From: a virus
Lineage: Duplodnaviria; Heunggongvirae; Uroviricota; Caudoviricetes
Virus record (IMG/VR): IMGVR_UViG_2537562015_000013
Reading direction: 5' to 3' (one strand)
DNA length: 20,876 nt
In this document: positions 1,610 through 19,619 of the stretch, piece after piece
Layout of the letters: every line of letters starts with the position of its first letter
Position numbering within the stretch: the first letter of the stretch is position 1
Translations under genes and position numbers: made by a program
The notes under the pieces: generated by a model
Seen by the model: the letters and a program-made list of their open reading frames with translations, nothing else
Database searches by the model: none
What the model was told of the DNA's origin: nothing

Positions 1610-1805
1610 CAGCTTGCGTAGCCCTGACAGTCTGTTTTGAGCGAACAGTGGACATTTTCAATGGCATTCTTGAGTAGGTTACGCTTAGACCAGAAGTAAG
1701 AGGTGATAGAATTATCAACAATACATAAAACATAGGGGATCCTTATTGATTTATTGATCTTGACCAACTTATGTGATGCAGTATGTCTTTAACTTGTATT
1801 ACTAT

Positions 1806-1829
1806 TATCTTTATCTTTATCTTTATCTT
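1806..1829. repeat. Perfect tandem hexamer repeat (TATCTT)x4 in the upstream region of the cargo gene
   Basis: Four exact copies at 1806-1811, 1812-1817, 1818-1823 and 1824-1829, about 40-65 bp upstream of ATG 1872. Confidence 0.9.
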
Positions 1830-1871
1830 GTTGTTTCTAATAAACTTATCTTATTTCAGAAAGGAGTTTCT

Positions 1872-3572
1872 ATGCATTTAGTCACGAAATCTTATTTCGA
1901 TGCCTTTTGCAAAGCATTCGCTGCGCCCTATGAGGAGACCAAAAATTTTGAGGCGTTTGTGAACTATTGTGCTTTTTCAAAATACTCAGGCGACAAAGTT
2001 GAGGTCAGTGATCTTGTGTATGAAGGCCCGGACCCTGGTATTGATGGAGCATTTTTATTTTTAGACGACAGAGCCATTTTTTCAACTGAAGAACTTCAGG
2101 AGATTTTCCAAAACTCACGTCGCGAGTTTCAAGTTTCATTAGTATTCACGCAAGCTAAGTCATCGGAGAAGTGGAGCAAACAGGAAATAGACTCTTACAT
2201 TGCGTCAATAAGAGATTATCTTTCACCAGCGCCACAACAACCCCACAGTGAATATCTAGCGGACTTTAAAAAAATGTTCAACTTGATATTTGCTAATATC
2301 GGCAGAGTCAAAAATGGCCTTCCAGACTTATACGCATATTTTTTTAGTGCTGCACAAAATACAGAGGCCAGAGAAATAAAAGCTGCATTTGCATCGGGTG
2401 AAAAAAGCTTAAAGTCACTCGGGTTTTCACATGAAACATCCTTCATTATGGCTCACAAAGACATGATTCATGAGCTTTGGCTTGCTGCGGAAGGTCCAAT
2501 AGAAGCTAAACTTCCTACAATAGGCTATGCTCCATTCCCAGCGGCCCCTAATATTAATAATGCCTATGTAGCTACAGTCAAAGCTCGTAGTTTTATTGAT
2601 TCTATACTTAAAGACAAAAATGGAAACCCTCGAAAAAAATTATTCGAAGAAAATGTTAGAGATTTTCTGGGAATTGATGGTGACGTAAATTCAGAAATTG
2701 CAGGAACACTAGATACTGATGGAAAAAAAGCAAGATTTGGTTTAATGAATAATGGAGTGACAATAGTTGCATCAAGCGTGAGGCCTGCAGGGCAAGAAAT
2801 TTTTATACGAGATTTTCAAATTGTTAATGGATGTCAAACGTCTAATGTTCTTATATCAAAAGACATTCAAGTAGATGAATCAGTTAGTTTAATGATTAAA
2901 TTAATTGAAACCGATGAGCCAGCGATCCTTGATGACATTGTACGAGCTACGAATAGACAATCTAAAGTTGAAGATGCACAGTTCATTTCAACGCTAAAAA
3001 AATTAAGGGAATTAGAACATTATTTTAATGCTAAAGGTGCTATTGAAGGAAATAAAATTTATTTTGAGAGAAGAAAGGGGCAGTATAGTTCAGAAAGTAT
3101 AGCTCCAGTACGCATATTTGATATCAGAGAAGTTGCGCGAGCATATGCTGCTATTGTTATGATGAGACCAGATTATTCCAGTCGTTATCCAAATAGGTTA
3201 ACTGGTGACTTACTTAATGAGGTTTTCTCTTCCGATGCCCTCGAGGATGATTATTATATATCTTGCTATTGCTTGTATAGGCTAAAGGCTCTTATCTCAA
3301 ATAAGAGGTTTGATGGGAAGTATTCAAAATTACGCTGGCATATTCTAACTGCTGCGTCAAAATACTGTGGTAATAATTATAAGGCTTGGGGGTTCAAAAA
3401 TAAAAATGAAGCTCTTCATAACTTATTCTCAATGAATGATGGGGAGTGGTTTGAAAAACTTGAGAGTTTAGTAAAAATAGCTATACCAGATCCGGATATT
3501 TCTCGAGACTTACTAAAGTCGCAGCCTTTAACATCAACGATTCTCAAAAGTGTTGATAGCGTACCTAAATAA
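1872..3572 (+). CDS. AT-rich cargo ORF, about 566 aa; putative AIPR-like abortive-infection (phage resistance) protein
   Basis: Long ORF with SD AAGGAG 5 nt before ATG 1872 (the track ORF from 1773 includes translation of the hexamer repeat and is unlikely to be the real start). Composition is clearly more AT-rich than the flanking phage genes. Contains FGLMNNGVTIV...FQIVNGCQTS, which I recall as resembling the conserved core of the AIPR family; this is unverified. Confidence 0.8.
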   Translation: MHLVTKSYFDAFCKAFAAPYEETKNFEAFVNYCAFSKYSGDKVEVSDLVYEGPDPGIDGAFLFLDDRAIFSTEELQEIFQNSRREFQVSLVFTQAKSSEKWSKQEIDSYIASIRDYLSPAPQQPHSEYLADFKKMFNLIFANIGRVKNGLPDLYAYFFSAAQNTEAREIKAAFASGEKSLKSLGFSHETSFIMAHKDMIHELWLAAEGPIEAKLPTIGYAPFPAAPNINNAYVATVKARSFIDSILKDKNGNPRKKLFEENVRDFLGIDGDVNSEIAGTLDTDGKKARFGLMNNGVTIVASSVRPAGQEIFIRDFQIVNGCQTSNVLISKDIQVDESVSLMIKLIETDEPAILDDIVRATNRQSKVEDAQFISTLKKLRELEHYFNAKGAIEGNKIYFERRKGQYSSESIAPVRIFDIREVARAYAAIVMMRPDYSSRYPNRLTGDLLNEVFSSDALEDDYYISCYCLYRLKALISNKRFDGKYSKLRWHILTAASKYCGNNYKAWGFKNKNEALHNLFSMNDGEWFEKLESLVKIAIPDPDISRDLLKSQPLTSTILKSVDSVPK

Positions 3573-3579
3573 AGAGAAG

Positions 3580-3598
3580 GGAAGCTTATTGCTTCCCA
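3580..3598. terminator. Hairpin GGGAAGC-TTATT-GCTTCCC between the convergent cargo gene and the AlpA-like gene
   Basis: Perfect 7-bp stem with a 5-nt loop 8 bp after the cargo gene stop; a T-rich run follows on the minus strand (CTTCTCTTTATTT), so it may also terminate the leftward operon. Confidence 0.45.
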
Positions 3599-3810
3599 AT
3601 AAATTAACACACTTATAGAACCCTTGACTTAAACTTTTTACTGGTTCTCTCAGATATCGATAATTTTATAGGTTGTATCATAGCGTGATCGTCTTCAAGA
3701 GAAACAACTTAACATTAAATTAGCAACGTTTGCTCTTGGCACAGACTTGACTGTCAGATTAGTTTGGTCTGTGCCATAGATATGTCAGCTCCCATCTGAG
3801 ATAATACACG

Positions 3811-4005
3811 TTACTCAATAACTCCAGCAAATCTGTATATCTTGCGTGATGCCCATTTATTTGGGCAGGATTTAATATCAGGATCTGGAAAGTCAGGCCT
3901 GTATTTCTGGCCAGTTCTCCTGTTTACGCTGTTCCAGCGAAGAACAGTCGATACTGAAACGCCACAGAAGTCGGCGACTTGTTTAGTTGTCATTAAGTTG
4001 TTCAT
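3811..4005 (-). CDS. AlpA-family small DNA-binding protein (excisionase-like regulator)
   Basis: 64 aa; HTH-like TTKQVADFCGVSVSTVLRW followed by a W...FP.P...W pattern resembling AlpA/Xis-type proteins; strong SD AGGAGGTG; start overlaps the stop of the upstream gene. Confidence 0.6.
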   Translation of the reverse strand: MNNLMTTKQVADFCGVSVSTVLRWNSVNRRTGQKYRPDFPDPDIKSCPNKWASRKIYRFAGVIE

Positions 4006-4625
4006 TACTTCACCTCCTGCGGCGGCTCCGGTAGCGGCATCCAGTGGGTTACTTTCGATGCCGGTTCTTCCCTATCGTCAGTAACTGCCCACCATTTGTT
4101 TCTCGACCAATCGTAATACCCTTCGAAGGTATCGCACTCAGTCCAGCCGTAAGGCTTCCCCCAACACCAAACATACTGTTTATCGTTCGGCATTCGCTCA
4201 CTACAGCTTATCCAACCATCCGGAGTTACTGGAGAGTTGCCCGACAGCTTGTTCAACTTGTAAGTCTGGCTTACAGGTTCGGCACCATGAAGCATGGCGG
4301 CGCGGCAGGCGTTCCAGCCTTCATCAAAACCGACTATGCCATTATTTAAAGACGGACGAGCATCTGGCACCACCGGCACTGGCTTGGCTATATATAGCGG
4401 CTGAACATACCAGCCCTTTGATAACCAACTGTCAGCAATGTTTTTACTCCTCGTTATTGCCGGAATACCTAAGCCATTTTCTGAATGCAGCCATGCCACC
4501 GGCTCCTCTTCTAGCGATGCCAGAGCAATTTCATAAGCACGGCGCTCAATATCGTCTCGAACCTCTAGGCTGCTGATTCGTTCTTTGATTTCTTTAATCA
4601 GTTCTTTATCGGTAAATGTGGTCAT
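4005..4625 (-). CDS. DUF551-like phage protein
   Basis: 206 aa; Trp-rich C-terminus WISCSERMPNDKQYVWCW...THWMPLPEPP typical of DUF551-type prophage proteins; SD GGAGG; translationally coupled to its neighbours. Confidence 0.65.
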   Translation of the reverse strand: MTTFTDKELIKEIKERISSLEVRDDIERRAYEIALASLEEEPVAWLHSENGLGIPAITRSKNIADSWLSKGWYVQPLYIAKPVPVVPDARPSLNNGIVGFDEGWNACRAAMLHGAEPVSQTYKLNKLSGNSPVTPDGWISCSERMPNDKQYVWCWGKPYGWTECDTFEGYYDWSRNKWWAVTDDREEPASKVTHWMPLPEPPQEVK

Positions 4626-4987
4626 TATGCTCCAGCCTCCGGTGCTTTTGGCATTACTGCCCAGTGAGTGATATTGACGTTTTCAAGGTCCCCGACCTGA
4701 AATGTCCACTGCCATTCTCCGGTTTCTTTTTGCCCCCATGTATACCAGAGAGAACGCCAGCCAATCAGCCAGCCTTCTCCATTAGCATCAAATAACAAAA
4801 CACTTTCATTTGCTGGTGGCAGTTCAGTTGACACTGGTATTACTTTGTTTTCCTGTGCTGCACATTTAGCTTCAAGCGCATCGAATTTACGCACTAGGTA
4901 TTCAGCATCCGTTTCATTCACTTTCAGATCTCGCGGTACACATCTCCCACGAAGAAACCCTTCCATTTCGAAAACATTCATGCGCAT
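4625..4987 (-). CDS. Second small DUF551-like phage protein
   Basis: 120 aa; C-terminus GEWQWTFQVGDLENVNITHWAVMPKAPE repeats the W...THW..P motif; SD GGAG; overlaps both flanking genes. Confidence 0.55.
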   Translation of the reverse strand: MRMNVFEMEGFLRGRCVPRDLKVNETDAEYLVRKFDALEAKCAAQENKVIPVSTELPPANESVLLFDANGEGWLIGWRSLWYTWGQKETGEWQWTFQVGDLENVNITHWAVMPKAPEAGA

Positions 4988-5514
4988 TTGCGTAACTCCG
5001 ATAATTCGTTAAAGCGTTCCATAAACATCCCGTAGGCATGGCCTGGAGCCAGTGGAATCACGTTGAACATCTCTGTTGCCGGGATACCTTCCAGCACAGG
5101 CCAGAAAGAGCCATCATCAAGCCCGAGATCGCGGCGTTCGGTTGCCAGCATAATGAGATCGGCATATTTCACTGGCGTGCTCATAACAGGAGGTAACCCG
5201 TATTTCTCACGGATTACGGCGTCTATTTTTTCTTCCATCCGTTTATAGTCAGGAAGAAGTCGTTTCAGTGGTGCGGGGATGTCCTGGCAATATGCTTCTG
5301 TTGCATCATGCATTAAAGCTTCAAAAGCAAATTCCTGCGGCACCAGCTGGCTGCAAAGCACCGCATGTTGGGCGACGCTGTAGAAGTGAGAAAGATGACC
5401 GGCAAAGCGGCAGATATTTGAAAGGGAAAACGCGATATCGTTAATAACGATGTCGTCTTTATTTATCTTGTCATAATAAAAATGCTTCCCGGAAAAAGTT
5501 TTAATAAATGACAT
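4978..5514 (-). CDS. HD-domain phosphohydrolase (YfdR-like putative 5'-deoxynucleotidase)
   Basis: H...HD signature (SVAQHAV ... LMHDATEAY). I place the start at the internal Met (MSFIKTF...) because GGAG sits about 8 nt upstream; the track ORF extends to 5577. Confidence 0.7.
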   Translation of the reverse strand: MSFIKTFSGKHFYYDKINKDDIVINDIAFSLSNICRFAGHLSHFYSVAQHAVLCSQLVPQEFAFEALMHDATEAYCQDIPAPLKRLLPDYKRMEEKIDAVIREKYGLPPVMSTPVKYADLIMLATERRDLGLDDGSFWPVLEGIPATEMFNVIPLAPGHAYGMFMERFNELSELRKCA

Positions 5515-5642
5515 TTTGTTCTCCACTTTATATGCGCTGCACCGCGCTGAATTTTGGTTAAAGAAAACCCTCGCCATCAGGCGATTATTGAGTTAATTAC
5601 GTTTCCATAAATGCCCCCGCAGGGGCATTTGCAGTAATGAAA

Positions 5643-6467
5643 TCAGGCGGTGAAAGTACCAATAAAGGTTTCTACTTTGCTGTCTTTGAATTTTTCAACA
5701 AGCAGATCACGAAATTCGTTAGCCATTTCTTCCTGCACTGCTTCCAGCTGAATAATGCGCAGAACCAGTACAGGGCGATCACCAGTGATAATGCTGAGGC
5801 GTAATTTAAACGGACGTTCTTTCAGGCCTTCAAACGGAACGCATTTAAACTCAAATGCTACTGGCATAATGTCTTTGGTTTTCGCTTCGACAGACTCCAT
5901 CAGAGAGCGTTTGCCGCTGAAGTCATTGTCTTCAAAATCAGCGGTCTGGTTTGCTTCAATCGTGATTTTACGGACCGCCGCAGCCGCTTTTGTTGCCTGA
6001 ATGGCGTCACCATTAGCATCAAAGCCCACAAGGTAGTCGGCCCAGTCTTCAATCCATTCTGCCAGTGACTTCTGGGAGTTACGCTCGCCGTTAACAGACA
6101 ACAGGGCAGAGAACGGTGCTGTCTTTTTCAGTTTGAGAGTGGCGGTGTTATCTGCGTGACCTGGTTCATCAATAGTACCCAGGTTAAGCACACTGACGGC
6201 TCGCATATTATCAGCATCGATAAAGCAGCGGGTGCCTTCATCTGCAAGATCTTTAGAATAACGGGTAAAGTCATCGATGCTGGCAGTGGAAAGCGCACCA
6301 CGGAAACGGAAGCGATTTAAATTAAATTTTTCCAGATCATGAATGCGGAAATTCTCAGGCAATGCCACAGCATCGGCACCAATCTTACTGATAATTTCAT
6401 TAACACCCTGAGCAGAAATAAGGGCATGGATTTGATTAATTGCGGTTGTGTCTAAGTTCTGAGACAT
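5643..6467 (-). CDS. YfdQ-family (DUF2303-like) prophage protein
   Basis: 274-aa ORF with an SD (GAGG) upstream; sequence resembles the YfdQ protein of CPS-53-type prophages as I remember it. Confidence 0.65.
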
Positions 6468-6532
6468 AATAAGTCCTCACTATATAAAGATATTCAGTGA
6501 TGAGATAAATAATCAGTTTATTAAAAACGATA

Positions 6533-6707
6533 TTAACGACCTGCTGCGCGGAGTTTTCCGTCAGGTTCACCGGCAAGAGTCAGTAATTGTCCCTGGTCTT
6601 CCTGCAGAATAGTCAGGCGACCACCGCGATTGACATACATCGGCGTTTCGGTGGTGTCTTCTTCGGAAATTTTCCCGCGGTTAGTCGGGCGAACATATGA
6701 GAGTTTG
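6533..6707 (-). pseudogene. 3' fragment of a leftward early gene truncated by IS1
   Basis: The reading frame runs straight into the IS1 left end at 6708 with no native start codon (the track ORF begins on a TTG inside IS1); it lies in the operon directly upstream of the YfdQ-like gene. Confidence 0.45.
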
Positions 6708-6762
6708 GGTGATGCTGCCAACTTACTGATTTAGTGTATGATGGTGTTTTTGAGGTGCTCCA

Positions 6763-7038
6763 GTGGCTTCTGTTTCTATCAGCTGTCCCTCCTGTTCAGC
6801 TACTGACGGGGTGGTGCGTAACGGCAAAAGCACCGCCGGACATCAGCGCTATCTCTGCTCTCACTGCCGTAAAACATGGCAACTGCAGTTCACTTACACC
6901 GCTTCTCAACCCGGTACGCACCAGAAAATCATTGATATGGCCATGAATGGCGTTGGATGCCGGGCAACTGCCCGCATTATGGGCGTTGGCCTCAACACGG
7001 TTTTACGTCACTTAAAAAACTCAGGCCGCAGTCGGTAA
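6763..7038 (+). CDS. insA: IS1 InsA protein
   Basis: 91-aa product [43 protein letters not shown]...; the A6C slippery motif (TTAAAAAAC, about 7012-7020) lies near its 3' end. Confidence 0.93.
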
Positions 7039-7460
7039 CCTCGCGCATACAACCGGGCAGTGATGTGATTGTCTGCGCGGAAATGGACGAACAGTGGGGC
7101 TACGTCGGTGCTAAATCACGTCAGCGCTGGCTGTTTTACGCGTATGACAGGATACGGAGGACAGTTGTGGCGCACGTTTTCGGTGAACGCACTCTGGCCA
7201 CACTGGCGCGTCTTCTGAGCCTGCTGTCGGCCTTTGAGGTCGTGGTATGGATGACGGATGGCTGGCCGCTGTATGAATCCCGCCTGAAGGGAAAGCTGCA
7301 CGTAATCAGCAAGCGTTACACTCAGCGCATTGAGCGACATAACCTGAATCTGAGACAACATCTGGCAAGGCTGGGACGGAAGTCACTGTCGTTCTCAAAA
7401 TCGGTGGAGCTGCATGACAAGGTCATCGGGCATTATCTGAACATAAAACACTATCAGTAA
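6957..7460 (+). CDS. insB: IS1 InsB reading frame (made as the InsAB' transposase by -1 frameshift)
   Basis: 167-aa frame [27 protein letters not shown]...HYLNIKHYQ overlapping the insA 3' end. Confidence 0.9.
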
Positions 7461-7801
7461 GTTGGAGTCACTACCCCGCCGCCGCAGTCCTTCATTTCTT
7501 ACCTGCTGACAAGTGGGTAACGCCACGCATGATGACGAGAACTACCGGAGTAAGCGAAGCCCGGTGCCAGTTAATACTGACTCAGTTAGTTCTGGCGGGT
7601 CTGGCGAAGGATAACGGCGGGTACGGGAATAAATTCAGACGCTGCCAGTAATGGCGGTTTCCTGCTGTGAAAATGGGCGGCTGGTGGGTGTTGGTAGCAC
7701 CTGCCAGCCATTCGCTCATGCTTACTGGTCACAAGCGAACCACGGCCCACTGCTTTAGCGCAAAAGCAGAGTGAGCCTACCAGAGTTACGCTTACTGATC
7801 C

Positions 7802-8854
7802 ATGAAAAATACTGTAAAAATAAACAGTGTTGATTTAATCAACGCTGATTGCCTGCATTTTATTCAGTCCCTGCCTGATGATTCCATTGACCTGATTGTT
7901 ACCGATCCGCCGTACTTCAAGGTGAAACCCAACGGCTGGGACAATCAGTGGAAAGGGGACGAAGATTACCTTAAGTGGCTGGACCACTGTCTGGCCCAGT
8001 TCTGGCGGGTGTTAAAACCTGCCGGAAGCCTTTACCTGTTCTGTGGGCATCGCCTGGCATCTGATATTGAGATCATGATGCGTGAACGTTTCAACGTGCT
8101 TAACCATATCATCTGGGCGAAGCCGTCCGGACGTTGGAATGGGTGTAATAAAGAAAGTCTGCGCGCATATTTTCCTGCCACAGAGCGCGTTCTGTTTGCT
8201 GAACATTACCAGGGGCCATATCGCGGCAAAAGTGACGGCTATGCGGCAAAAGAAAGGGAACTCAAACAGCACATAATGGCACCGCTGATATCGTATTTCA
8301 GGGATGCTCGTGCCGAACTGGGTATAACGGCAAAACAAATTGCCGAAGCCACAGGTAAGAAAAATATGGTTTCCCACTGGTTTGGTGCCAGTCAGTGGCA
8401 GTTGCCGAATGAGGCTGACTATCGGAAGTTACAGGCACTGTTTTCCCGTATAGCGGCAGAGAAGTTTCAGGAACAACAACTGGAACAACCACACCACCAG
8501 CTGGTGGCATCTTATGATTCACTGAATCGCAAATATTCTGAATTGCTGGATGAGTTTAAATCTCTCCGGCGTTATTTCTCCGTATCAGTCTCCGTGCCTT
8601 ATACCGATGTCTGGATGCATAAACCCGTTCAGTTCTACCCGGGTAAACATCCGTGTGAGAAACCGGCGGATATGCTCAGGCAAATAATCAATGCCAGTAG
8701 TCGACCTGGTGATCTGGTTGCTGATTTTTTTATGGGATCCGGTTCCACAATAAAAGCAGCAATGGCGCTGGGGCGTCGGGCCTTAGGTGTTGAGCTTGAG
8801 TCAGAGCGGTTTAACCAGACAGTGAAAGAGATAAACGAGCTGGTGGGGAAATAA
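7802..8854 (+). CDS. DNA methyltransferase, beta-class N6-adenine or N4-cytosine type (orphan)
   Basis: 350 aa; catalytic motif IV DPPY (LIVTDPPYF) near the N-terminus and AdoMet motif I FFMGSGST near the C-terminus; no restriction partner visible; no clear SD before the ATG. Confidence 0.85.
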   Translation: MKNTVKINSVDLINADCLHFIQSLPDDSIDLIVTDPPYFKVKPNGWDNQWKGDEDYLKWLDHCLAQFWRVLKPAGSLYLFCGHRLASDIEIMMRERFNVLNHIIWAKPSGRWNGCNKESLRAYFPATERVLFAEHYQGPYRGKSDGYAAKERELKQHIMAPLISYFRDARAELGITAKQIAEATGKKNMVSHWFGASQWQLPNEADYRKLQALFSRIAAEKFQEQQLEQPHHQLVASYDSLNRKYSELLDEFKSLRRYFSVSVSVPYTDVWMHKPVQFYPGKHPCEKPADMLRQIINASSRPGDLVADFFMGSGSTIKAAMALGRRALGVELESERFNQTVKEINELVGK

Positions 8855-8860
8855 TCTGGT

Positions 8861-8885
8861 GGCCACGTCAGGTGGCCTTTTTATT
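8861..8885 (+). terminator. Candidate intrinsic terminator between the methyltransferase and the holin
   Basis: GGCCAC-GTCAG-GTGGCC hairpin followed by TTTTTATTT, starting 7 bp after the methyltransferase stop; positionally like lambda tR' upstream of S. Confidence 0.45.
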
Positions 8886-8930
8886 TCCAACACAGCACCC
8901 GCAAATAATCGCGAGGTGAGAGATGACGAA

Positions 8931-9266
8931 ATGCCTCATAACCCAAATACCTGGCCGGACTGGCTGGAGTTGTTCCAGAGCTGGTGGCGTGGAGATACGC
9001 CGCTGGGCGCAGTGATTATGTCGATTGTTATGGCTGGTTTGCGCATCGCCTATTTTGGTGGTGGTGGTGGCTGGAAGCGAAAAACGCTCGAGATTTTGCT
9101 ATGTGGCGCTCTGACGTTGACCTTTGCATCCGCGCTTGAGTATGTCGGATGGCCTAAATCGCTTTCTGTTGCCATTGGTGGTGGGGTGGGGCTGATCGGG
9201 GTCGATGCTATTCGTGGGGCTGCAATGCGAGTAATCGGTAACAAGTTCGGTGGCTCTAAGGAGTAA
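8931..9266 (+). CDS. Putative holin (three predicted transmembrane segments, charged C-terminal tail)
   Basis: Sits immediately upstream of the endolysin; hydrophobic stretches LGAVIMSIVMAGLRIAYF, LEILLCGALTLTFASALEYVGW and LSVAIGGGVGLIGVDAI. Start placed at ATG 8931 with GAGG upstream; the track start at 8859 is a GTG inside the terminator hairpin with no SD. Confidence 0.65.
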   Translation: MPHNPNTWPDWLELFQSWWRGDTPLGAVIMSIVMAGLRIAYFGGGGGWKRKTLEILLCGALTLTFASALEYVGWPKSLSVAIGGGVGLIGVDAIRGAAMRVIGNKFGGSKE

Positions 9267-9269
9267 TTT

Positions 9270-9746
9270 ATGCAGGTACTAAATTCCCAGCGTAAAGCTT
9301 TCCTCGATATGTTGGCGTGGTCAGAAGGAACGGATAACGGGCGACAGCCAACCCGCAATCACGGCTACGACGTTATTGTAGGTGGTGAGTTATTCACGGA
9401 TTACTCCGATCACCCTCGCAAACTTGTCACGCTAAACCCCAAACTCAAATCAACAGCAGCCGGACGTTACCAGCTTCTTTCCCGTTGGTGGGATGCCTAT
9501 CGTAAGCAGCTTGGCCTGAAAGACTTCTCTCCAAAAAGCCAGGACGCTGTTGCACTGCAGCAGATTAAGGAGCGTGGCGCTTTACCGATGATTGATCGCG
9601 GTGACATCCGTCAGGCAATCGACCGTTGCAGCAATATCTGGGCTTCACTGCCGGGCGCTGGTTATGGCCAGTTCGAGCATAAGGCTGACAGCCTGATTGC
9701 AAAATTCAAAGAGGCTGGCGGAACGGTCAGAGAGATTGAGGTATGA
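9270..9746 (+). CDS. R: Endolysin, lambda R-type lytic transglycosylase
   Basis: 158 aa, nearly identical to lambda R as I recall it ([22 protein letters not shown]...AGGTVREI). Confidence 0.93.
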
Positions 9747-10210
9747 GCAGAGTCACCGCGATTATTTATGCTCTGGTTATCTGCATCATCGTCTGCCTGT
9801 CGTGGGCGGTCAATCATTACCGTGATAACGCCATCGCCTACAAAGAACAGCGTGATAAAAAAGTCAGTGAGCTGAAGCAGGCGACCGCCACCATTACTGA
9901 CATGCAGATGCGTCAGCGTGATGTTGCTGCGCTCGATGCAAAATACACGAAGGAGTTAGCTGATGCGAAAGCTGAAAATGATGCTCTTCGGCGCAAGCTT
10001 GATAATGGTGGTCGGGTGCTCGTCAAAGGAAAATGCTCTGTGCCATCCTCAGCCGAAACCTCCAGCGCCTCCGGCATGGGCAATGATGCCACCGTCGAAC
10101 TCTCTCCAGTTGCTGGACGAAACGTTCTCGGTATCCGGGACGGAATCATCAGAGACCAGACAGCACTGAGAACGCTTCAGGAATATATCAGGACGCAATG
10201 CCTTCGATGA
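9743..10210 (+). CDS. Rz: Rz inner-membrane spanin
   Basis: 155 aa; N-terminal TM segment and coiled-coil region resembling lambda Rz ([30 protein letters not shown]); overlaps the R stop. Confidence 0.88.
9963..10169 (+). CDS. Rz1: Rz1 outer-membrane lipoprotein spanin, embedded in Rz in the +1 frame
   Basis: 68-aa ORF wholly inside Rz; signal peptide with lipobox ([19 protein letters not shown]) and a Pro-rich mature region ([14 protein letters not shown]); SD AAGGAG 7 nt upstream. Confidence 0.75.
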
Positions 10211-10419
10211 TAGCGATAATTTTACTCATCATCCTTCACATTTGGCTCTGTAGACAGGGTGGTGATCACTTCTGGAGTGAATCCAGATTAAATATCTCAT
10301 TGCTGATGCTTGATATTGAGCATCTTGCGCGCGGTAAGGGGCTGCGTTGAGATAAGAGCCAGTCATTACAAATACCAGGATTTAGCCTCGTATTCGCGGG
10401 GCTTTTTATTGTCATTACA

Positions 10420-13831: not shown

Positions 13832-15339
13832 TGGCAATTCTTGATGATGTGATTGGCGTTTTTTCACCAGGATGGAAAGCGGCAAGGCTGCGTTCCCGGG
13901 CGGTGATCCAGGCTTATGAGGCCGTAAAAACGACGCGGACACACAAAGCCCGGCGGGAAAACCGAACTGCCGACCAGTTAAGCCAGTACGGGGCCGTGTC
14001 GTTACGTGAGCAGGCCCGTTACCTTGATAACAACCACGATCTGGTCATTGGTGTATTTGACAAGCTGGAAGAACGGGTGGTGGGGAAAAACGGGATTATT
14101 GTCGAGCCACATCCGGTATTACGCAATGGGGCCATTGCCCGTGATCTGGCTGCGGAGATTCGCACCCGATGGAGTGAATGGTCTGTCAGCCCGGAAGTCA
14201 CCGGGCAGTTTACCCGTCCGATGCTGGAACGTCTGATGCTGCGTACCTGGCTGCGCGATGGTGAGGTGTTTGCCCAGATGGTTTCCGGGCGCATAAACAG
14301 CCTGACGCCTTCTGCCGGTGTTCATTTCTGGCTGGAGGCGCTCGAGCCGGACTTTATTCCCATGACCAGTGATGAGAGCAACAGGCTGAATCAGGGCGTG
14401 TTTGTTGATGACTGGGGGCGTCCCGAAAAATATCTGGTGTATAAAAGCCGTCCCGTATCCGGACGGCAGATGGAAACCAAAGAAGTGGATGCAGAGCGAA
14501 TGCTGCATCTTAAATTTGTTCGCCGTCTGCACCAGATGCGCGGGACGTCTTTATTGTCCGGTGTGCTGATCCGCCTCAGTGCTCTGAAAGAGTATGAAGA
14601 TTCTGAGCTGACTGCAGCAAGGATCGCCGCTGCTCTGGGGATGTACATCCGGAAAGGCGACGGGCAGAGCTATGAAGCGGATGGTAATGGCAGCAAGGAT
14701 AAGGAACGCGAGCTTACCATTCAGCCAGGCATTATTTACGATGATCTGAAACCCGGCGAAGAAATCGGAATGGTGAAGTCGGATCGCCCCAATCCTAACC
14801 TTGAAACTTTTCGTAATGGTCAGTTGCGTGCCGTGGCGGCGGGCAGTCGTCTGAGTTTTTCCAGTACAGCGCGCAACTATAACGGCACTTACAGCGCCCA
14901 GCGTCAGGAGCTGGTTGAATCCACTGATGGCTACCTGATCCTGCAGGACTGGTTTATTGGTGCCGTCACCCGTCCGATGTATCGTGCCTGGCTGAAACAG
15001 GCTGTGGCATCCGGTGTTATCAGGCTACCCCGCGATCTTGACCGTTCTTCACTGTATACCGCGGTGTATTCCGGACCGGTGATGCCGTGGATTGACCCTG
15101 TTAAGGAGGCTGAGGCCTGGAAAATCCAGATTCGTGGTGGAGCGGCGACAGAATCAGACTGGGTACGTGCTGGTGGTCGTAATCCGGATGATGTCAAACG
15201 TCGGCGCAAGGCCGAAATTGATGAAAACCGCAAACTGGATCTGGTATTTGATACCGATCCGGCCAGTGATAAAGGAGGCAGCAGTGCCGCAACGAAACGA
15301 CAGGAGCCGCAGCACACCGACGACCAGTCCGAAGAATAA
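13831..15339 (+). CDS. Portal protein (lambda gpB-like)
   Basis: About 503 aa from ATG 13831 (SD GAGGT); the size and the A-W-B-C gene order match lambda head genes; the track ORF from 13759 overlaps gpW in the same frame. Confidence 0.85.
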
Positions 15340-15352
15340 TTCCTGGTTCAGG

Positions 15353-17215
15353 ATGCAGGCTGGTCACCAGAGTGACGCGGATATTTATATTTATGACGAG
15401 ATTGGTTTCTGGGGTGTTACAGCGAAGCAGTTTATCAGTGATCTGAATGCACTGGGCGATATCACCCACATTAATCTCCATATTAATTCACCGGGTGGCG
15501 ATGTCTTTGAAGGCATCGCCATTTTTAATGCGCTGAAAACACATGGTGCGTCCATTACCGTTTATGTCGACGGTGTGGCGGCGTCAATGGCGTCGGTCAT
15601 TGCGATGGTGGGAAACCCGGTCATTATGCCGGAAAACACCTTCATGATGATTCATAAACCATTTGGCTTTACGGGCGGTGATGCGGAGGACATGCGCACC
15701 TATGCCGACCTGCTCGATAAAGTTGAGGCGGTTCTGTTACCCGCTTATGCACAGAAAACCGGGAAAACCACCGATGAAATTGCTGCCATGCTGGCGGATG
15801 AGACCTGGATGTCCGGTGCCGAATGTCTGGCACATGGATTTGCTGATCAGGTAACGCCAGCCGTTAAGGCAATGGCATGTATTCAGTCAAAACGTACAGA
15901 GGAATTTAAAAAGATGCCGGAATCCATTCGAAACATGATTACTCCGCCACGCAACAGTGCTCCACGCGTACAGGATGATGAACCTGCAGCCTCCCGGACG
16001 CCAGTGCAGGCAGCAGCACCCGTGGTGGATGAAAACAGTATCCGTGCGCAGGTAGCCGCCAGTATCAATATCAAACCGGGCCATGATTATTACTTTTATA
16101 TCCGCAGTGTGAACACCGTTGGCAAATCGGCATTCGTGGAGGCTGTTGGTCAGCCGAGTGATGATGCATCCGGCTATCTGGATTTTTTCAAAGGAGAGAT
16201 AGGGAAAACCCATCTGGCTCAGGAGTTGTGGACGCAGATTGATAACGGTCAGCTTGCGCCTGACCTGGCTGAAATCAGGATGTCCATTACGGATGTCAGC
16301 AATGAAATCACGCAGACCGTCAATAAGAAACTGGAAGACCAGAGTGCAGCGATCCAGCAGATACAGAAGGTTCAGGTTGATACAAATAATAACCTGAACA
16401 GCATGTGGGCTGTGAAGCTGCAGCAGATGCAGGACGGACGCCTTTATATCGCGGGTATTGGTGCCGGTATTGAGAACACCCCTGACGGCATGCAGAGTCA
16501 GGTGCTGCTGGCGGCAGACAGGATTGCGATGATTAATCCTGCGAATGGCAACACAAAGCCGATGTTTGTTGGTCAGGGCGATCAGATATTCATGAACGAA
16601 GTGTTCCTGAAATACCTGACGGCTCCCACCATTACCAGCGGCGGTAATCCTCCGGCATTTTCCCTGACACCGGACGGGCGGCTGACGGCGAAAAATGCAG
16701 ATATCAGCGGTAACGTGAATGCGAACTCCGGGACGCTCAACAATGTCACGATTAATCAGAACTGCCGGATTCTGGGAAAACTGTCAGCCAACCAGATTGA
16801 AGGCGATATTGTTAAAACGGTGGGCAAAGCTTTCCCCCGTGACTCCCGTGCACCGGAACGGTGGCCATCAGGGACCATTACCGTCAGGGTTTATGACGAT
16901 CAGCCGTTTGACCGGCAAATTGTTATTCCAGCGGTGGCTTTCAGCGGTGCCAGACATGAACGGGAGAATAGCGATACTTATTCGTCATGCCGCCTGATAG
17001 TGAAGAAAAACGGGGCTGAAATTTATAACCGAACGGCTCTGGATAATACTCTGATTTACACGGGTGTTATTGATATGCCTGCAGGCAGTGGCGTAATGAC
17101 ACTGGAGTTTTCGGTATCAGCATGGTGGGTAAATGGCTGGTATCCCACAGCAAGTATCAGCGATTTGCTGGTTGTGGTGATGAAGAAAGCCACTGCAGGC
17201 ATCATGATTAGCTGA
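15353..17215 (+). CDS. Chimeric ORF: prohead protease (gpC/ClpP-like, clan SK) N-terminal domain fused in frame to the C-terminal part of a J-like tail tip host-specificity protein; probable deletion remnant
   Basis: N-terminus carries protease motifs ([22 protein letters not shown]). From about 16066 the sequence ([27 protein letters not shown] ... [39 protein letters not shown] ... MPAGSG) parallels the C-terminal region of lambda J as I recall it. Confidence 0.75.
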
Positions 17216-17273: not shown

Positions 17274-19619
17274 ATGGCAGTACAGATTTCAGGTGTGCTG
17301 AAAGATGGTGCGGGAAAACCAATACAGAACTGCACTATTCAACTGAAGGCAAAGCGTAACAGCACCACGGTACTGGTGAACACGGTGGCCTCTGAAAATC
17401 CGGATGAAGCCGGGCGTTACAGCATGGATGTTGAGCATGGCCAGTACAGCGTCACCCTGCTGGTTGAAGGTTTTCCGCCTTCACATGCCGGAACCATTAC
17501 CGTCTATGAAGGTTCCAGACCAGGTACGCTGAATGATTTTCTCGGTGCCATGACGGAAGATGATGTCATGCCGGAGGCATTGCGTCGTTTTGAGGCAATG
17601 GTGGAAGAAGCGGCACGCAACGCCGAAGCCGCCTCTCAGAGCGCAGCGGCGGCAAAGAAATCCGAAACTGCAGCGGCATCATCGAAGAACGCGGCGAAAA
17701 CCTCAGAAACGAATGCAGCTAACAGCGCACAGGCGGCAGCGTCCTCGCAGACTGCATCGGCAAACTCCGCGACAGCAGCCAAAAAATCAGAAACCAACGC
17801 GAAAAACAGCGAGACAGCCGCAAAGACGAGCGAAACCAACGCAAAGTCCAGCCAGACGGCAGCGAAAACCAGCGAAACGAATGCCAAAGCCAGTGAAACT
17901 GCGGCGAAAAATAGCCAGAATGCAGCAGCCGAAAGCGAGAGCGCGGCAGCCGGTTCTGCGACTGCAGCAGCTGGATCAGCAACTGCTGCGGCTAACAGCC
18001 AGAAAGCAGCGAAGACGAGCGAAACTAACGCAAAGTCCAGCCAGACGGCAGCGAAGACCAGCGAAACAAATGCCAAAGCCAGCGAAACTGCGGCGAAAAG
18101 CAGTCAGGATGCAGCAGCCGAAAGCGAGAGCGCGGCAGCTGGTTCTGCAAGTGCGGCGGCTGCTTCTGCCACTGCATCAGCAAACAGTCAAAAAGCGGCA
18201 AAAACCAGTGAAACCAATGCAAAGACAAGCGAGACTGCAGCGGCGAACTCGGCGCAAGCATCGGCAGCAAGCCAGACAGCAGCTAAAGCAAGTGAGGATG
18301 CAGCCAGAGAGTATGCAAGCCAGGCAGCAGAGCCGTATAAATATGTCTTACAGCCACTGCCTGATGTGTGGATACCGTTTAACGATTCACTGGATATGCT
18401 TGCTGGCTTTTCGCCTGGTTATAAGCAAATAACCGTAGGTGATGATGTTATTAAAATGCCATCCGATAAGGTTGTTAGCTTCAAACGCGCATCAGGTGCA
18501 ACATACATTAATAAATCAGGTGTATTAACCGTTGCTGAAGTTGACGAACCGCGATTTGAACGAGAAGGTTTGCTGATTGAAGGACAGAGAACAAACTATT
18601 TCAGAAATTCAAATACACCAGAAGCATGGAATAACACGGGTAGTGTGTCTGTTGAGTCGTTCGACAGTGATAAGGGGTTTAACTATGGAAGGATAACTGT
18701 TATTAATGAAAATCCGACAGCACAAGGATATCAGGCAATTGCTGTAAACACGAATGATGCTTACACCTGCCCGGCAGGTTCTTATACGACGATATCGTGT
18801 CTGACGAAAAGTGATAATTCCCGGTGTCGTGCAAGGTTCGGAAAAATGTCTGATAATGGTGCGTTTGTTTTTCATTCAGATGCAGTTCTGGATCCTGTTA
18901 CGGGAAATGTTGTTCATGGAAATAATGTGACGGTGACGGCAGAAAGAGTCGGTGAATGGTGGTTGTTTACCGCCACTCTTTTTGCAGATGCGGAAATGAT
19001 AATCAGCTCAAGATTTGAAATCCTGGCGATGCCTGGAATCAGTATTATCCCCAATGGCTCTACGTTAGATATTGCGATGCCTCAGGCGGAGATTGGGTCG
19101 TACAGGACGTCATTTATCATTACTGAAGGGGCTCCTGGCACTCGCTCCAGCGACATGGTGACAATACCTGTAAGAAACAATATTCACCGATTACCATTCA
19201 GTGCTCTTGTTGAAGTTAATAAAAACTGGGATATCCCTCCCAGCAAATCACCATTAATCTTTAATGTTAAAGATTATCAGGAAAATGGTCTGTTCACGCA
19301 TGGATTCCGTGGTAATAATTTCTCTGATGCCGGTTCTCCTTTTATTTCTATGGGAGGGTGTAATAAATATGTGGCAACAACCCAGAGGAAAATCATTTCA
19401 GGCTTCCGTTGTGGCGCTGATGGAGATGTTCAGGCCGTATGTAATGGTGAATTATCTGTTGCGGCAAAAACAACATGGACTTCAATTGTTCCACGGGCAG
19501 TATTGCGAATTGGAGGGCAGGGCACTAATGGGGAGTATCATCTTTTTGGTCATATCCGTAATCTGCGTATCTGGCATAAAGAATTAACTGATGCGCAAAT
19601 GGGGGAGAGTATTAAATGA
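17274..19619 (+). CDS. stf: Side tail fiber protein (Stf-like) with a repetitive Ala/Ser/Thr-rich shaft and a LamG-like C-terminal domain
   Basis: N-terminus MAVQISGVLKDGAGKPIQNCTIQLKAKRNSTT... closely matches lambda Stf as I recall it; the central region is built from AAKTSETNAK-type repeats; the C-terminus ends GEYHLFGHIRNLRIWHKELTDAQM, a pattern typical of LamG/ConA-like jelly-roll domains. Start placed at ATG 17274 (GGAG upstream). Confidence 0.88.
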   Translation: MAVQISGVLKDGAGKPIQNCTIQLKAKRNSTTVLVNTVASENPDEAGRYSMDVEHGQYSVTLLVEGFPPSHAGTITVYEGSRPGTLNDFLGAMTEDDVMPEALRRFEAMVEEAARNAEAASQSAAAAKKSETAAASSKNAAKTSETNAANSAQAAASSQTASANSATAAKKSETNAKNSETAAKTSETNAKSSQTAAKTSETNAKASETAAKNSQNAAAESESAAAGSATAAAGSATAAANSQKAAKTSETNAKSSQTAAKTSETNAKASETAAKSSQDAAAESESAAAGSASAAAASATASANSQKAAKTSETNAKTSETAAANSAQASAASQTAAKASEDAAREYASQAAEPYKYVLQPLPDVWIPFNDSLDMLAGFSPGYKQITVGDDVIKMPSDKVVSFKRASGATYINKSGVLTVAEVDEPRFEREGLLIEGQRTNYFRNSNTPEAWNNTGSVSVESFDSDKGFNYGRITVINENPTAQGYQAIAVNTNDAYTCPAGSYTTISCLTKSDNSRCRARFGKMSDNGAFVFHSDAVLDPVTGNVVHGNNVTVTAERVGEWWLFTATLFADAEMIISSRFEILAMPGISIIPNGSTLDIAMPQAEIGSYRTSFIITEGAPGTRSSDMVTIPVRNNIHRLPFSALVEVNKNWDIPPSKSPLIFNVKDYQENGLFTHGFRGNNFSDAGSPFISMGGCNKYVATTQRKIISGFRCGADGDVQAVCNGELSVAAKTTWTSIVPRAVLRIGGQGTNGEYHLFGHIRNLRIWHKELTDAQMGESIK
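17823..18200 (+). repeat. Two tandem copies of a 189-bp (63-aa) unit inside stf, within a larger degenerate repeat tract (about 17630-18300)
   Basis: 17823-18011 and 18012-18200 align with only scattered substitutions (KTSETNAKSSQTAAKTSETNAKASETAAK.SQ.AAAESESAAAGSA...). The overlapping track ORFs in other frames and strands here are repeat artefacts. Confidence 0.85.

Follow-up and report, generated by a model that had tools for sequence, protein, structure and literature searches.

A lambdoid prophage remnant at Escherichia coli prfC and the probable IS1-associated deletion of its immunity, replication and Q genes

We analysed a stretch of viral DNA of 20,876 nucleotides (IMG/VR record IMGVR_UViG_2537562015_000013), referred to here as the window. 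Over its full length the window is 99.93% identical to the genome of E. coli E1648, a diarrhoeal stool isolate from Indonesia, with 8 mismatches and one 6-bp gap in 20.9 kb. In E1648 the element sits between yjjG and prfC, and the whole prophage measures about 23-23.5 kb. Its left end is formed by a short prfC 5' fragment and the gene of a 407-aa tyrosine integrase, and its right end by a DinI-like gene and intact prfC. The integrase thus lies beside the attachment site and both ends of the prophage are present.

At the centre of our analysis is a complete IS1 of 768 bp on the plus strand (6708-7475), which has imperfect terminal inverted repeats and both frames open. The left inverted repeat (6708-6730) reads GGTGATGCTGCCAACTTACTGAT, and a script check showed that the right inverted repeat (7453-7475), when inverted, agrees with it at 18 of 23 positions. 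insA (6763-7038) is open for 91 codons and contains the A6C slip motif TTAAAAAAC, the frameshift site, at 7012; the insB' frame stays open as far as 7460. RefSeq calls the same element in E1648 an intact transposase with a programmed frameshift. Annotated IS1 copies from many genomes share 99.7% identity with the element across all 768 bp, and it is a typical IS1.

The same isoform is found in 392 records at ≥99% identity, and at this level it also occurs in O6:H16 and O25:H16 strains and in ATCC 43886, all of which we take to be enterotoxigenic. The E1648 genome itself holds at least 40 matching IS1 pieces, and the host lineage may be ETEC-like and IS1-rich. Compared with the IS1A copy in strain PEC122, the IS1 of the window is 95% identical, and 35 of the 38 differing positions lie after nucleotide 289. 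We considered whether this uneven distribution marks a mosaic element and hence a past recombination, and rejected the idea because the same full-length isoform is present in 392 other records.

To the left of IS1 lies a 3' fragment of yfdP on the minus strand (6533-6707). It consists of the final 175 nt of a gene that measures 363 nt in relatives; the last 58 codons and the stop are kept and the N-terminal 62 codons are missing. An alignment with yfdP of phage mEp460 (NC_019716), vB_EcoM-689R6 and the PEC122 prophage is near-identical through 6707 and then breaks, while the relatives go on with TGTTTGATTTTC. The preliminary description of this DNA, made from its letters, had the leftward early operon ending in a gene fragment that abuts IS1, and indeed yfdP homology ends at the base before the element. 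Likewise, RefSeq flags the yfdP piece in E1648 as a partial pseudogene without its N-terminus.

To the right of IS1, on the plus strand, lies what remains of a phage ORF (7476-7651), a conserved gene of 67 codons homologous to mEp460 gp52 (WP_000917724); its 3' part is retained, but 28 nt at its 5' end have been lost, start codon included. This flank agrees with mEp460 at every base from position 40687 onward, and gp52 is annotated there at 40659-40862. The remnant translates in frame for 57 residues to a stop, and a Pfam search with it matched no family. It is followed by a native intergenic spacer (7652-7801, plus strand) that is identical to the mEp460 DNA upstream of gp53. From the right end of IS1 to the methyltransferase gene, 7476 to 7801, the distance is 326 bp. 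The preliminary description had given about 325 bp of non-coding DNA here; its length was right, and its reading as non-coding is correct for 7652-7801 and wrong for 7476-7651, where the gene remnant lies. With the DNA methyltransferase gene (7802-8854, plus strand; Pfam N6_N4_Mtase, E = 2e-42) the intact part of the late arm begins, and holin, endolysin, Rz, terminase and portal genes come after it. The E1648 and PEC122 prophages share the methyltransferase protein accession WP_000799656.1.

PEC122 carries a full-length prophage of ~47.6 kb at the same yjjG|prfC site as the window prophage. The two have the integrase and the integration site in common (97% nucleotide identity over the integrase region) and encode the same small terminase protein, whereas the mEp460 integrase is a different protein. 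Both mEp460 and PEC122 resemble the window in their early-left genes (DUF551, yfdS, yfdR, yfdQ and yfdP; 97-99.6% nucleotide identity) and, likewise at 97-99.6%, in the 67-codon ORF and the genes for the methylase, Rz, DUF1441 small terminase, large terminase and portal. BLAST against PEC122 aligned window 4980-6536 (yfdR and yfdQ) at 97%, 6527-6710 (the 3' part of yfdP) at 98% and 7476-8903 at 99.4%. Between the yfdP block and the 7476-8903 block, 9,548 bp of PEC122 are missing from the window, so that the alignment to an intact prophage at the same locus, as the preliminary description had proposed, defined the deleted interval. In mEp460 the breakpoints fall at 30594|30595 and 40686|40687, and 10,092 bp are missing from the window.

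Both flanks are collinear with mEp460 and PEC122, in unchanged orientation, and stand 9.5-10.1 kb apart there. This supports the earlier proposal of an IS1 adjacent deletion or a recombination between two IS1 copies. An inversion between inverted IS1 copies was rejected, since neither flank is turned relative to the intact phages. An exchange with a distant chromosomal prophage was rejected as well, given that both ends of the prophage are in place at prfC; for the same reason the deletion is internal.

In mEp460 the missing interval holds two small ORFs, an XRE/S24 (cI-like) repressor, a cro-like HTH gene, YmfL and a Rha-type antirepressor; then a small ORF, a replication gene, PerC, an adenine methylase and a LexA-like gene; and then RusA, KilA-N, a DUF968/HNH gene, Q and gp51. 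The interval also includes a strong intrinsic terminator, downstream of Q at mEp460 40513-40532. The PEC122 interval contains an equivalent gene set with a different Q allele. The preliminary description had listed the lambdoid genes to be expected at this place. The repressor, cro, replication, nin-like and Q genes are present in the relatives and were rightly called missing; the claim did not stand for N, which is annotated in neither relative at the corresponding position. We sought repressor, replication and Q genes in the window by RefSeq annotation and by Pfam searches of annotated and unannotated ORFs, and found none, in agreement with the earlier statement that neither a repressor nor a late-gene activator is visible. 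Immunity, replication and Q, which together mark a functional lambdoid prophage, are thus absent from the window, and all are present in mEp460 and PEC122.

Judged by comparison with these relatives, the losses comprise the immunity genes, the replication genes, the nin-like genes (RusA, KilA-N, DUF968), Q and the terminator that follows it. By analogy with lambda and from the position of the mEp460 terminator, the late promoter would be expected in the lost stretch too. The remnant would accordingly be unable to maintain immunity, replicate or activate its late genes. IS1 lies upstream of the methylase, lysis and terminase genes, and its transposase is oriented as they are; a search of the plus strand between IS1 and the methyltransferase gene found nothing resembling a terminator. 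We also considered a hybrid promoter at the right end of IS1 and rejected it: the only promoter-like candidate, a 9/12 match at 7506-7533, has a counterpart in mEp460, and such sites were no more numerous than in shuffled controls. Expression of the surviving late genes, if any, would come only from weak IS1 read-through or cryptic promoters.

We examined the bases at the two junctions for a target-site duplication. The 9-mers outside IS1 are GAGAGTTTG on the left (6699-6707) and CCGCCGCCG on the right (7476-7484), and they differ, as the preliminary description had said. A script check at every length from 2 to 15 bp found no direct repeat flanking the element, and when either IS1 boundary was moved by up to 4 bp the best agreement between the 9-mers was 3 of 9. 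The 8-9 bp duplication of a simple IS1 insertion is therefore absent from this IS1. Such a duplication marks a simple insertion event and not the element itself, and its absence here is attributed to the deletion. The right 9-mer is 100% G+C and comes directly after an A+T-rich stretch; a stretch of 100% G+C is not a typical IS1 target, which counts against an IS1-associated event. The breaks, at 6707|6708 and 7475|7476, are the exact ends of IS1, as in an IS-associated deletion. A simple insertion of IS1 into the junction of an older deletion was rejected, as it would have left a duplication.

The locus could also be read as a natural compact mosaic or a satellite that never had its own immunity and replication module, with IS1 merely inserted between modules. 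Lambdoid phages are mosaic, and the cargo genes and the holin/endolysin cassette do differ between the window and PEC122. Yet both junction genes are cut in mid-ORF exactly at the ends of IS1, the duplication expected of a plain insertion is lacking, and PEC122 carries a near-identical full-length prophage at the same site. Moreover, no phage record has both flanks close together, and the flanks adjoin without the immunity-replication-Q module in no phage and in no other E. coli genome. An intact phage with the same compact order and without IS1, named beforehand as the finding that would count against a deletion, was likewise absent among phages and E. coli genomes. We regard this reading as barely credible.

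Among 5,426 complete E. coli genomes, either junction was found only in E1648, E1654 and E1739, three closely related genomes of Indonesian diarrhoeal isolates, and the left junction as observed was not found in GTDB species representatives. IS1 is highly repeated in the host genome and repeats are classic sites of misjoining, so an assembler might have collapsed two IS1 copies around the immunity-to-Q segment into one. However, the same junctions recur in three chromosome-level assemblies and in the window, which has 8 differing positions and one 6-bp gap, and in none of these assemblies does IS1 adjoin the lost half of yfdP or the lost 5' portion of the 67-codon ORF. An assembly artefact is thus highly improbable.

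The 5,426 E. coli genomes were also searched with two chimeric queries. The first joined the right end of IS1, GAGAGTTTG and the missing half of yfdP; the second joined the missing 5' end of the 67-codon ORF, CCGCCGCCG and the left end of IS1. Neither revealed an exact junction of a simple IS1 insertion with its duplication at either site, and the only high-coverage matches were two-piece, with IS1 170-300 bp off at another site. Exact-pattern scans of metagenome contigs for the ancestral or reciprocal junctions returned nothing. Likewise, an IS1 copy flanked by the complementary half-sites, which the preliminary description had suggested looking for elsewhere, was found neither in the three assemblies nor in other E. 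coli genomes.

Other IS1 copies were seen in the same parts of related prophages. In PEC122 an IS1A lies between yfdQ and yfdP (4109175-4109942 of the record) with an 8-bp duplication, ATATTAAT. Among the matches listed, several other strains have IS1 adjoining yfdQ and yfdP; the closer inspection covered PEC122. In ECN24 the methyltransferase gene is closely preceded by an IS1A, at about 9450-10220 of the ECN24 locus. The regions near both breakpoints appear to be repeatedly targeted by IS1 in related prophages.

Because the flanks are collinear, both prophage ends are in place, the breakpoints coincide exactly with the ends of IS1 and the duplication is missing, we conclude that the locus carries an internal deletion bounded by IS1. 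With high confidence we assign it to an IS1-associated event; the prophage concerned is lambdoid, of the mEp460/SfV-like kind, and is integrated beside yjjG at the prfC 5' end. Its ancestor, ~47 kb long, would have lost ~9.5-10 kb, starting midway through yfdP and ending 28 nt into the small ORF that follows Q. In the simplest scheme an ordinary IS1 insertion at one of the two sites would have come first; the same IS1 would then have undergone intramolecular replicative transposition into the other site, and the intervening DNA would have been lost as a circle. IS1 reportedly promotes adjacent deletions (Reif and Saedler, 1975). We consider such an adjacent deletion the most likely route, at slightly better than even within the IS1-associated class, on parsimony alone. 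Since no ancestral insertion was found at either site in the 5,426 genomes or in metagenome contigs, both the order of events and the choice of route are matters of parsimony only.

The same arrangement could have arisen from two independent IS1 insertions of like orientation, which would have duplicated GAGAGTTTG in yfdP and CCGCCGCCG in the 67-codon ORF; RecA recombination between the two copies would then have excised the 9.5-10 kb. This would leave exactly what is observed, one IS1 with one half-site from each insertion; at the level of sequence, adjacent deletion and two-copy recombination are expected to give an identical product, and the sequence does not separate them. The lineage is rich in IS1, with at least 40 matching pieces in the host genome, and IS1 has struck the same phage region repeatedly elsewhere (PEC122 and others; ECN24). 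Missing duplications have been attributed to adjacent deletion or to recombination between IS copies as the usual causes, and recombination between identical IS elements is listed as a frequent one (PMC11708052). However, this route needs two insertions within 10 kb and a recombination, against one insertion and one intramolecular event for the adjacent deletion, and neither a single nor a double insertion was found in any of the 5,426 genomes or in metagenome contigs. The difference between IS1 and IS1A is uninformative here, as the isoform is shared at ≥99% with 392 other records. Within the IS1-associated class we place two-copy recombination somewhat below even, and among all readings we hold it as a tentative second choice.

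A single step could also be imagined, in which the new IS1 copy arrived together with the deletion, with no prior IS1 at the endpoints and hence no duplication. In its favour, an IS1 already present at either endpoint was seen in 0 of 5,426 genomes and in no metagenome contig, and a one-step, duplication-free class of IS insertion with deletion has been proposed for IS5 and IS481, with such events documented for these other IS families (PMC11708052). Against it, where an event is private to one lineage and known from three genomes, the absence of ancestors from databases carries little weight. Furthermore, in the long-term evolution lines described in the same paper every case of an IS with a deletion was an insertion first and an adjacent deletion later, and no one-step event is reported for IS1 (PMC11708052). 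If true, this reading would extend the IS5/IS481 class to IS1 in a natural isolate; we judge it very unlikely, and keep adjacent deletion by a resident IS1 as the preferred account.

The window has lost a second piece of DNA, in this case IS-free. Relative to PEC122, 12,613 bp of head-completion and tail genes are gone, and a ClpP-protease/capsid gene now continues into the 3' portion of gpJ, with a 2-bp microhomology (TA) at the junction, 16053/16054. The product (15284-17215) is an in-frame 643-aa chimera with the Pfam domains CLP_protease, Ig_J_second, Phage_Tail_Tip and Ig_GpJ_C, which RefSeq names head maturation protease. The head and tail gene set is thus incomplete. Unlike mEp460 and PEC122, the window is therefore without both the 9.5-10 kb immunity-replication-Q module and 12.6 kb of head/tail genes, and it differs from them in an AIPR cargo gene and in another holin/endolysin pair.

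Several further features of the remnant were recorded. Beside the integrase gene lies an AIPR-family cargo gene (1773-3572; PF10592, E = 6e-43), AIPR standing for abortive infection phage resistance; the matching slot in PEC122 is occupied by an unrelated hypothetical gene. A 64-aa ORF on the minus strand (3811-4005), which has no RefSeq annotation in E1648, gave sub-threshold matches to HTH_17, HTH_23 and MerR over its first 24 residues. It is probably an excisionase, in which case the remnant may have kept xis as well as int. The PEC122 lysis cassette gave no nucleotide match with the holin and endolysin genes of the window (8904-9742), whereas the methylase and the Rz/terminase regions match at 98-99%; the difference is a module swap, typical of lambdoid mosaicism. 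A tail-fibre gene contains an internal direct repeat (17805-18242), two 249-bp stretches that are 85% identical at an offset of 189 bp. Just to the right of the window end, at 2430-4329 of the E1648 locus, reverse-transcriptase and SLATT-domain genes lie between the tail-fibre genes and DinI/prfC, and may be a defence module retained in the remnant.

The event resembles the IS1 adjacent deletions known from the gal region of E. coli K-12. There too the IS is kept at the boundary, with the old flank at one end and the new target at the other, the duplication is lacking, flank orientation is kept and the scale is kilobases. Unlike those deletions, the window event is reconstructed from relatives, its starting insertion is unseen and two-copy recombination competes as an account of it. 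The prophage pool of E. coli O157 Sakai includes defective lambdoid prophages with deletions and IS insertions (PMC2669165). Like the window prophage, its members are chromosome-locked and have lost regulatory, replication and morphogenesis genes through IS elements and deletions, leaving an intact patchwork. Cryptic prophages of K-12 are likewise remnants decayed by IS elements and deletions; CPS-53, one of them, contains yfdP to yfdS. In contrast to the Sakai and K-12 pools, the instance described here is lineage-private, with three isolates in 5,426 genomes; its mechanism fits the known pattern. The IS-associated deletion is an ordinary, already known and well-understood form of prophage decay, with no departure from known mechanisms.

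The locus is a clean textbook example of how a missing target-site duplication flags an IS-associated deletion, and the intact prophage at the same site lets the lost module be defined to the base. Beyond annotation its importance is little. The orphan methyltransferase, lysis cassette, terminase, portal, AIPR and RT/SLATT genes that survive are perhaps of minor interest for recombination between prophages and for prophage-borne defence. As it has no repressor, replication genes or Q, the prfC prophage is a grounded remnant of ~23 kb that should be counted neither as an inducible phage nor as a source of immunity.
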